Source: a virus. From it: a stretch of DNA of 35,664 nt. A program made the position numbers and the translations under genes. Under the pieces are notes generated by a model that did no database searches, was not told the origin of the DNA, and saw nothing but the letters and a program-made list of their open reading frames with translations. The stretch is from the UHGV virus genome UHGV-0379599, one strand, 5' to 3'. Positions 12,431 through 13,758 of this stretch are shown here, one piece after another. Each line of letters starts with the position of its first letter. Within the stretch, counting starts at the first letter, position 1.

Positions 12431-12518
12431 GCAACTTAGATATATTAACTCGCTTATAGCACTTAACAGTCTGACAACTAGCCTTGTCACAAAAATTTGT
12501 AAGCGCCATCATATTCTC

Positions 12519-12548
12519 TTGACTCAAGATACCAATACAAGTGACTAT
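12519..12548 (+). promoter_or_regulatory. Candidate sigma70-type promoter for the cargo gene (TTGACT -35; weak -10)
   Basis: TTGACT at 12519-12524 in an AT-rich intergenic stretch; the -10 element is poor (GACTAT/TATGTA). Tentative. Confidence 0.25.
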
Positions 12549-12603
12549 GTAATCTTTTATGATGTTACCTCATTTGGGTTAATATATTAAAAGGAGTTGA
12601 AAA

Positions 12604-13674
12604 ATGTCTCTAGTTACCCGCAATGTATTCATTGATACTGAGTTTTTTGTAAAAGCAAACCTGGACTTCAATTCAAAAACTATAAAATCATTTGAAGAAC
12701 TATGTAGAAATAATGAGTTCAGGCATATTTCCACAACAATTGTAGTTAAAGAAGTTGAACGAAAAATCATCGAACATATACAAGAAGCATTGAAAGGGAT
12801 TAACAATTTCCGACGAAAGGCTGTTATCCTCAAAGAATATGAAGATGACAATATTAAAAATCTATTTTGTGAAATTAATGAAACTGACATTCAAGAAAAG
12901 GCATTAAGCGCATTTAATTGTTTCATGGAGGACTCAAACACAACTATTGTAGATATGTCGAAGGTGGACCTCAATGAAGTTATAGACATGTACTTTGATA
13001 AAAAAAGCCCCTTTAGCGCGAAAAAACCTAACGAATTTCGAGACGCCTTCACTCTTTTAGCAATACGTTCCGCGCTAGGAGATAATGAAAAAATTTATGT
13101 GGTTTCAGAAGACCCTGACCTAAAAGGTTACTGTGAAAACAATGATAATTTCATAATTATAGGAGCACTAAACTTACTACTAGATGATTACAACAAACAC
13201 AATGACGAAAGAACTGGATTTATAGAACGTTTTTTAGAAAGCAAAAATGAAGAAATCATACGGAAATTAAAGGAAGAATTAGAAACTGCTGAAGCTTATA
13301 ATTCTTCAACATGGGAAGACTCAGAGATTGATAGTTTTGAAATTACGAACATAAGCGAATTTGAGCCCAAAATAATTCATTTGGATGACGAAAGTTGTCA
13401 AATTACTTTTGATGTTACTGTTAGTTTTAATGTCACTGCCAGCGGACCTGATACCGCAAATGGCTATAATGACAAAGAGGATAGAAAATTTTATACCTTT
13501 GACACCGTATCTAATCACGAGGAGGAGGAAAAGGATTTTACAGTAGAACTAGAATTATTCTTTGAAATAGACGAAGGCCAGTTTATCAATGATGAGTTTA
13601 ATTTGCACATAAATGGACTGGATGCTGGTATTGAATTTTGTGTCGATGAAAACTCATGGGAAGACTATAGATAG
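12604..13674 (+). CDS. AT-rich cargo gene, 356 aa, N-terminal PIN-like nuclease motifs (putative), acidic C-terminal domain of unknown function
   Basis: Strong SD (AAGGAG 7 nt upstream). Visibly lower GC than flanking D and ogr. Motifs NVFIDTEFF (res 7-15) and IYVVSEDPDL (res ~164-173) resemble the first and last acidic motifs of PIN-domain nucleases. Confidence 0.5.
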   Translation: MSLVTRNVFIDTEFFVKANLDFNSKTIKSFEELCRNNEFRHISTTIVVKEVERKIIEHIQEALKGINNFRRKAVILKEYEDDNIKNLFCEINETDIQEKALSAFNCFMEDSNTTIVDMSKVDLNEVIDMYFDKKSPFSAKKPNEFRDAFTLLAIRSALGDNEKIYVVSEDPDLKGYCENNDNFIIIGALNLLLDDYNKHNDERTGFIERFLESKNEEIIRKLKEELETAEAYNSSTWEDSEIDSFEITNISEFEPKIIHLDDESCQITFDVTVSFNVTASGPDTANGYNDKEDRKFYTFDTVSNHEEEEKDFTVELELFFEIDEGQFINDEFNLHINGLDAGIEFCVDENSWEDYR

Positions 13675-13758
13675 CTCCTCACTCAGGGAGGGCTGTCAGT
13701 TGGAATCTGAATTGGGACAACTTAGAATAGCGGCAGCACCACGTTAAGGGAGGTCGCT

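Follow-up and report, generated by a model that had tools for sequence, protein, structure and literature searches.

A single AT-rich gene lies between tail gene D and ogr in a P2-like phage genome, and this locus raises the question of how the gene came to be there and what it does for the prophage that carries it. The window (the whole stretch of DNA that was analysed, 35,664 nucleotides) was a P2-like genome of the P88/Xuanwuvirus type, complete and circularly permuted. The first-pass annotation had placed an ORF encoding 356 amino acids at 12604..13674 on the plus strand with gene D and ogr as its neighbours, and both the ORF and the neighbours were found as described. The backbone genes were arranged as follows.

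up to 11163, minus strand: tail sheath, tube, tape-measure, and U genes
11189..12430, plus strand: gene D (gpD-like tail gene), stop codon at 12428-12430
13759..14019, plus strand: ogr
15664..16806, minus strand: integrase
20522..23389, plus strand: replication gene A
25732..28529, minus strand: portal and terminase genes

Boundaries and 5' region of the cassette

The AT-richness on which horizontal acquisition had been proposed was evident in every measure: the GC content was 0.31-0.34 over the ORF versus 0.52-0.58 in gene D, GC3 was 0.29 versus 0.61, and the cassette as a whole had a GC content of 33.8% versus 52.5% in the remainder of the window. The gene was AT-rich in all of its hosts, including Pseudomonas (42% GC). 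Comparison with the empty site of phage Chuche revealed a clean insertion between D and ogr, flanked by a 9-bp direct repeat, CAACTTAGA. The features of the cassette outside the coding sequence are listed below.

12432..12440, plus strand: left copy of CAACTTAGA, immediately 3' of the gene D stop codon
12441..12603, plus strand: AT-rich 5' region of the cassette, assigned from the sequence
12441-12449, plus strand: conserved left boundary TATATTAAC, common to two other cargo cassettes
12519-12524, plus strand: TTGACT, -35-like hexamer
12541-12549, plus strand: conserved block GTGACTATG, with a possible -10 GACTAT after an 18-nt spacer
12592-12596, plus strand: Shine-Dalgarno sequence AGGAG, 7 nt 5' of the ATG
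13675..13717, plus strand: 3' non-coding end of the cassette, containing the right boundary
13693-13706, plus strand: right boundary CTGTCAGTTGGAAT, common to the cassettes of phages 500465-2 and 520873
13718..13726, plus strand: right copy of CAACTTAGA, at which homology to the P88-like phage backbone restarts

Just two copies of CAACTTAGA were present in the 35.6-kb window, and two copies occurred in none of 100 shuffles. The empty site of Chuche, TGA-GCAACTTAGA-ATAGCGGCAG, contained a single copy, and the distance from the D stop to the ogr start was 42 nt in Chuche, P88, PhiR44_2, Shae_phiSM, and P884B11. The empty state may have arisen by deletion between the two repeats. In all three cassettes, the left boundary consisted of CAACTTAGA followed by (T/C)(A/G)(T/C)ATTA(A/G)C, and the right boundary was CT(G/A)T(C/T)AGTTGGA(A/G)T. 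Since different cassettes at this junction have a common boundary sequence, their ends suggest that cassettes are swapped by recombination in the conserved flanks. A dedicated exchange mechanism may be at work, proceeding either through homologous recombination in short flanks or through an unrecognised site-specific process.

The Shine-Dalgarno sequence and the TTGACT hexamer had both been claimed for the gene, and both were located. The segment from TTGACT to GTGACTATG was conserved upstream of the Serratia homologue and in part upstream of the Yersinia homologue, in unrelated contexts. As this block was kept despite different surroundings, the PIN gene appears to travel with its own 5' region. 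A promoter scan of the cassette gave 9/12-type matches only, and a terminator scan detected no intrinsic terminator on either side of the PIN gene and none before ogr; each scan is uninformative alone. There was no conserved ORF in the 173-nt region upstream of the gene, and a search of the cassette for an RNA antitoxin of type I or III gave neither a tandem-repeat RNA nor an Rfam family. A sok match considered as an RNA antitoxin of the cassette was rejected, as it belongs to the hok locus after ogr.

This hok/sok type I toxin-antitoxin locus (14064-14350) was located directly 3' of ogr and comprised a Hok/Gef ORF at 14210..14350 (PF01848, E 4e-7) and a sok RNA at 14064-14223 (Rfam RF01794, scoring 48 bits where the gathering cutoff is 59). 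Related phages have kept the locus, under the annotation MokW-like or Hok/Gef. In related phages and prophages, the interval from hok to the integrase or attachment site contained Com and a DNA methyltransferase; in their place, the window had two minus-strand ORFs of 176 and 137 amino acids at 14748-15692. The 176-amino-acid ORF was a coiled-coil sequence with a repeated LKGELKSD pattern, its matches to the ZorA and LmuB models being weak and of coiled-coil type only, and the 137-amino-acid ORF had no match. This interval is a further variable site in the phage genome. At 23466-25629, where gene A and the portal gene flank the classical P2 hotspot for defence genes, the window contained a full-length gene for a ParM/StbA actin-like plasmid-segregation protein at 23466..24425 (PF06406, E 6e-82; PF21523, E 7e-69), followed by two ORFs, at 24840..25247 on the plus strand and 25207..25629 on the minus strand, neither of which had a Pfam or PADLOC match. 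A partition ATPase is unusual in an integrase-bearing P2-like phage, and it might point to an episomal phase or have a role in defence or exclusion.

Domains of the PIN_12 protein

The coding sequence and its domains had the following coordinates.

12604..13674, plus strand: CDS (ORF), 356 amino acids, PIN_12 (DUF4935) family
12625..13203, plus strand: N-terminal PIN-like nuclease domain, residues 8-200
13204..13284, plus strand: helical linker, residues 201-227 (AlphaFold helices 201-213 and 215-227, pLDDT 82-93), aligning with the Cosus linker
13288..13671, plus strand: C-terminal acidic, beta-rich domain, residues 229-356

A profile HMM search and a structure prediction had been proposed as checks on the PIN-like reading, and both agreed with it. 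Pfam PIN_12 (PF16289, formerly DUF4935) matched residues 8-172 above its gathering score (73.8 bits versus a cutoff of 32, E 2.9e-20) and over profile positions 1-171 of 172. The AlphaFold model (pLDDT 86.5, pTM 0.75) had a PIN alpha/beta core with the Rossmann-like alpha/beta/alpha fold of the VapC structural group, a long helical insertion at residues 45-110, the linker helices, and a beta-rich domain at residues 230-345. The two motifs noted earlier, NVFIDTEFF and IYVVSEDPDL, corresponded to PIN motifs 1 and 4. In an alignment of 42 sequences, D11, T12, E50, D147, S168, D170, and D172 were invariant and occupied canonical PIN acidic positions; D11, E50, D147, D170, and D172 correspond to the metal-chelating acidic residues of the PIN superfamily. 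Of the catalytic residues that had been suggested (approximately D11, E13, E168, D169, and D171), D11 was confirmed, whereas E13 and E169 were variable, the invariant residues in the second motif being S168, D170, and D172, and E50 and D147 had been missed. The protein was predicted to be a metal-dependent PIN endonuclease of the VapC group.

The C-terminal part was as acidic as had been claimed, with 35 D/E versus 6 K/R in residues 229-356, and it contained the near-invariant motifs YNSSTWED, GPD, YD.ED, and GIE in the 42-sequence alignment. When a profile of this domain was compared with 1.84 billion representatives, only 143 proteins were detected, nearly all of about 350 amino acids with the domain at 225-356, and all nine of the distant carriers checked had an N-terminal PIN_12 domain; long multi-stretch matches were discarded as false positives from Big_2 repeats. 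The confinement of the C-terminal domain to PIN_12 proteins among these representatives indicated an obligate companion of the nuclease, and the alternative that it is a shuffled sensor module was rejected. This agrees with an account from 2017, in which DUF4935 proteins were described as having a PIN-like N-terminus and an unassignable alpha/beta C-terminus and as usually monocistronic (PMC5499597).

Homologues and occupants of the D-ogr slot

A search of 5.8 billion proteins yielded 107 homologues, all full length (approximately 345-365 amino acids), from Enterobacterales, Pseudomonas, Xanthomonas, Acinetobacter, Aeromonas, Achromobacter, and one cyanobacterium. An identical protein was present in 96 public E. 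coli contigs, where its sole annotation was PIN/DUF4935 domain protein. For the E. coli copy, which differs by 9 synonymous and 7 non-synonymous changes, the dN/dS ratio was 0.18; against the Serratia gene it was 0.09, with omega at approximately 0.10 for each domain; against the Yersinia gene, omega was 0.04-0.12. The PIN half and the C-terminal half are both under purifying selection.

The homologues occurred in diverse surroundings, and no neighbour gene was common to the window and six other contexts; the gene was a stand-alone single gene, as in the Cosus family. In Serratia, the homologue (78% identity) occupied the classical old/tin hotspot of a P2-like remnant, with gpA fragments on one side and the portal gene on the other, and a Lamassu system (CTD7, MC3, LmuB_C) lay directly downstream of it. 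Enterobacter phage ENT4, the sole match among 50,697 phage records, carried a homologue of 65% identity, placed between gpS and gpV on the strand opposite the late genes. Other homologues were found on an E. coli ICE and on plasmids, most of them conjugative; the Pseudomonas homologue was near a TIR_2 gene, that of Yersinia was among MazEF, LPD38, Rpn, and T5orf172 genes, and that of Pseudanabaena was in a toxin-antitoxin-rich patch.

At the D-ogr junction itself, the slot was empty in six of nine distinct related phages. Among 5,426 complete E. coli genomes, 1,202 had a match to D and/or ogr, and the junction in these was mostly empty, with a span of approximately 832 bp; 16 genomes carried the PIN gene at approximately 98% identity in the same D-PIN-ogr context.

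The same point held other genes in other phages and prophages. Phage 500465-2 had a minus-strand gene for a 340-amino-acid protein (2863-3885 of its locus), with related E. coli matches; its match to HEPN_RiboL-PSP was sub-threshold (E 1.2e-4, 22.5 bits versus a cutoff of 28.4), PADLOC gave no match, and it is a candidate single-gene HEPN defence. Phage 520873 had a 132-amino-acid ORF (1700-2098 of its locus) that was an N-terminal fragment of DS-43 (WP_001057122.1, 221 amino acids), and the sequence 3' of this ORF was still similar to the rest of DS-43, so that this copy looks frameshifted or decayed. DS-43 also occurred as cargo at the E. coli junction, and it is an experimentally validated and replicated single-gene defence system (DefensePredictor, PMC13092281, Tables S6 and S8). 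Further E. coli cargo comprised a TIR-type protein matching PADLOC bSEFIR (E 1.4e-44), a 389-amino-acid DUF3800 protein in T28R (723-1892 of its locus), and a 384-amino-acid hypothetical protein in M1/5 (756-1910 of its locus). Neither of the last two had a PADLOC match, and both are defence candidates by position.

Hotspots described for P2-like phages are old/tin between gpA and the portal gene and Z/fun (Rousset et al. 2022, PMC9122126), and several minor ones, together with a "third hotspot" from a tail protein to CI (iLund4u preprint, 10.1101/2024.10.15.618418). The D-ogr junction and its set of cargo are absent from the hotspot accounts in the literature covered. Like the described hotspots, it is a variable locus between conserved core genes that is empty in some relatives and holds alternative single genes, known defence genes among them, in others, and the conserved boundary sequences on both sides would permit cassette swapping. 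It differs from them in being, in P88-like/Xuanwuvirus phages, a one-gene slot with a 9-bp direct repeat. With the D-ogr slot, the map of P2-like defence loci gains a defined one-gene hotspot whose boundaries are conserved.

The PIN_12 protein itself had no meaningful match in PADLOC 2.0, NCBIfam, or PHROGs. These nulls reflect the age of the libraries and are not evidence against defence, as Cosus itself also has no PADLOC match. In DefensePredictor Table S10 (PMC13092281), cluster WP_063611489.1 is listed among the "uncharacterized clusters" as a "Predicted novel defense gene" with a mean log-odds of 12.6 and no homology to known defence proteins, which is a prediction only. WP_063611489.1 is the E. 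coli protein in the D-PIN-ogr context.

Proposed function and comparison with known systems

We consider that the cassette probably serves anti-phage defence as a single-gene module of the DUF4935/PIN_12 family carried by a prophage, in a sister clade of Cosus; we would give this reading as a whole a probability of roughly 0.6. The earlier description of a nuclease-like moron with the profile of an anti-phage or abortive-infection gene or a toxin gained support from the homology to Cosus, the PIN fold, and the sharing of the slot with bSEFIR and DS-43. For this clade, defence would follow from homology at approximately 23% identity and from guilt by association. VapC, SMG6, and the cold-shock-domain fusions of the Cosus clade would, by analogy, favour RNA as the substrate.

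As neither an antitoxin gene nor an antitoxin RNA was present, we infer that the C-terminal domain stands in for the antitoxin. In the lysogen, this acidic domain would hold the nuclease inactive, either because it blocks the nucleic-acid groove or because it governs oligomerisation. An infecting heterologous phage would supply the trigger that releases the nuclease, and the infection would be halted by cleavage of nucleic acid, possibly with the loss of the cell. The gene would probably be transcribed in the lysogen from its own upstream promoter, and also by read-through from the late tail operon. A more specific version, which we put forward only tentatively and regard as doubtful, is that the acidic domain acts both as an intramolecular nucleic-acid-mimic "antitoxin" and as a decoy sensor seated in the substrate groove; a phage nucleic-acid-binding protein (SSB, a polymerase, or an anti-restriction target) would pull the mimic away and thereby switch on a single-chain toxin-antitoxin without proteolysis or a second gene. 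If true, decoy sensing would be new among the principles described for PIN nucleases, and the difficulty of obtaining Cosus escapers could be explained by it. The acidic domain, as an obligate and selected partner of the nuclease, points to the place in which to seek regulation.

Four other explanations were weighed, and all are less likely than a defence nuclease of the Cosus kind. The gene could encode an accessory nuclease that benefits the phage in the lytic cycle or on induction, for example by degrading host RNA/DNA or competitor transcripts; it would then end the late tail operon and be expressed with it, not in the lysogen. The PIN gene is on the same strand as D and ogr, and as no terminator was found before ogr or on either side of the gene, it could be mainly a late gene; the modest matches of the promoter scan are in line with this. 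However, most close phage relatives do without the gene, the slot being empty in most E. coli prophages as well as in the related phages counted above, the ENT4 homologue is on the strand opposite the late genes, the family also occurs on ICEs, on conjugative plasmids, and in chromosomal islets without phage genes, and the gene keeps its upstream region in different contexts. We regard this explanation as unlikely.

A role as a selfish toxin for addiction or stabilisation, in effect a single-chain toxin-antitoxin that penalises loss of the prophage or mobile element and has no part in phage defence, is quite improbable. The PIN domain is of the VapC group, the gene is found on mobile elements, a hok/sok addiction locus is present just downstream of ogr, and Cosus carries a fitness cost of 11%. 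Post-segregational killing, however, needs a separable labile antitoxin, and no such gene or RNA was found; the genes sharing the slot are defence genes and not addiction modules, and the closest characterised relative has a phage-resistance phenotype. Addiction and defence roles are not mutually exclusive. Counter-defence, in which the acidic C-terminal domain would mimic nucleic acid in the manner of Ocr/ArdA against restriction or DNA-binding immune proteins, or the nuclease would destroy host immune RNA, has a very small probability. A decaying remnant or chance ORF in AT-rich junk with no current function, for which only the AT-rich foreign DNA and the generic annotation speak, has already been refuted by conservation and selection, namely 107 full-length homologues with invariant catalytic and C-terminal motifs, an omega of approximately 0.1 in both domains, and a confident structure prediction.

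The preferred reading, a single-gene defence nuclease, was compared with characterised PIN systems. The protein differs from the VapC toxins of type II VapBC modules in being monocistronic, with no VapB antitoxin gene, approximately 2.5 times longer, and equipped with a 65-residue helical insertion and an extra C-terminal domain; there was no antitoxin gene upstream or adjacent, no conserved neighbour elsewhere, and no RNA antitoxin candidate. DS-3 was rejected as the same system because it contains a different PIN family (working ID PIN8, with VapC20-type matches). DS-5 consists of two genes, DS-5A (DUF5830 plus an AcrIF4-like domain) and a gene for a 376-amino-acid PIN_12 protein; its defence requires the catalytic residues, and the partner gene is essential (DefensePredictor, PMC13092281). 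Our protein resembles the DS-5 nuclease in its PIN_12 domain and similar length (hhalign 94.6% over residues 7-198), but the alignment was limited to the PIN domain and the C-terminal halves were unaligned. A tblastn search with DS-5A against the window and 22 loci gave nothing better than E 0.24, and no homologue of this partner was found in the window or beside any family member. Assignment to the DS-5 type was rejected because the gene has no such partner, its neighbours being gene D and ogr, and because of the unaligned C-terminal halves.

Cosus (Brc24) is a mobile-integron cassette with a single PIN_12 gene that confers complete T7 resistance at the fitness cost given above (Kieffer et al., bioRxiv 10.1101/2024.07.02.601719; Science 2025). 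Of the 11 substitutions made in it, D153A and D177A among them, reduced defence was reported only for T12A, D14A, and D96A; these three mutants were still approximately 100-fold protective, most of the defence was gone in the D14 alanine mutant, and an escape mutation, sought with the help of an attenuated allele, was located in a T7 tail protein (10.1101/2024.07.02.601719). A hexameric assembly has been suggested for Brc24. The substitution results and the escape in a tail protein indicated that classical PIN catalysis may not be the whole mechanism.

The supplementary DNA of Brc24 contained OCR indels, and the protein was pieced together from three frames and the mutagenesis primers; a direct tblastn search with this damaged DNA gave only a 72-residue match. 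A clean Cosus family of approximately 382 amino acids from databases was used in place of the rebuilt Brc24 for profile comparison. The PIN_12 clade then aligned with the Cosus family by hhalign at 99.1% probability (E 6.9e-19, residues 8-298 versus 11-326, 23% identity), and this homology of two-domain architecture ran from the PIN domain through the linker into most of the C-terminal domain, the last 58 or so residues being unaligned. Both systems are single genes without a partner and are carried on mobile elements. Both proteins (382 and 356 amino acids for Cosus and ours, respectively) have a PIN_12 N-terminus, a helical linker, and an acidic, beta-rich C-terminus with a net charge near -29 (37 D/E versus 8 K/R in Cosus), and the acidic residues D11, E50, D147, and D170 of our protein correspond to D14, E52, D153, and D177 of Cosus.

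The differences concern clade, context, and architecture. At approximately 23% identity, the two form separate clades, and the homologue searches gave non-overlapping sets of proteins. Cosus is an integron cassette with attC, whereas our gene occupies a P2-like prophage slot with no integron context; judged from its ends alone, the cassette has no attC, being bounded by the CAACTTAGA repeat and phage-type boundary motifs. An attC site is not strictly defining for Cosus, since homologues without attC have been reported (10.1101/2024.07.02.601719). Some members of the Cosus clade have an N-terminal cold-shock domain, which was not seen in our protein; four examples of approximately 462-467 amino acids had this domain (PF00313) fused N-terminally to PIN_12, and these fusions hint that the family acts on RNA or ssDNA.

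PIN_12/DUF4935 proteins are widespread, and phage defence by two members, Cosus and DS-5, has been shown only recently. The clade described here offers a compact test case with its native, putative promoter region and a tractable entry to the mechanism of the family, and because the slot swaps single defence genes in E. coli prophages, the gene should be simple to clone, with an isogenic phage whose site is empty for comparison. If the proposed function were validated, DefensePredictor cluster WP_063611489.1 would become a characterised system. The cassette gene is not categorically new, being of the PIN_12/DUF4935 defence kind and already flagged by a machine-learning screen; by profile and homologue comparison, it is placed in a sister clade of Cosus and not in the same clade.
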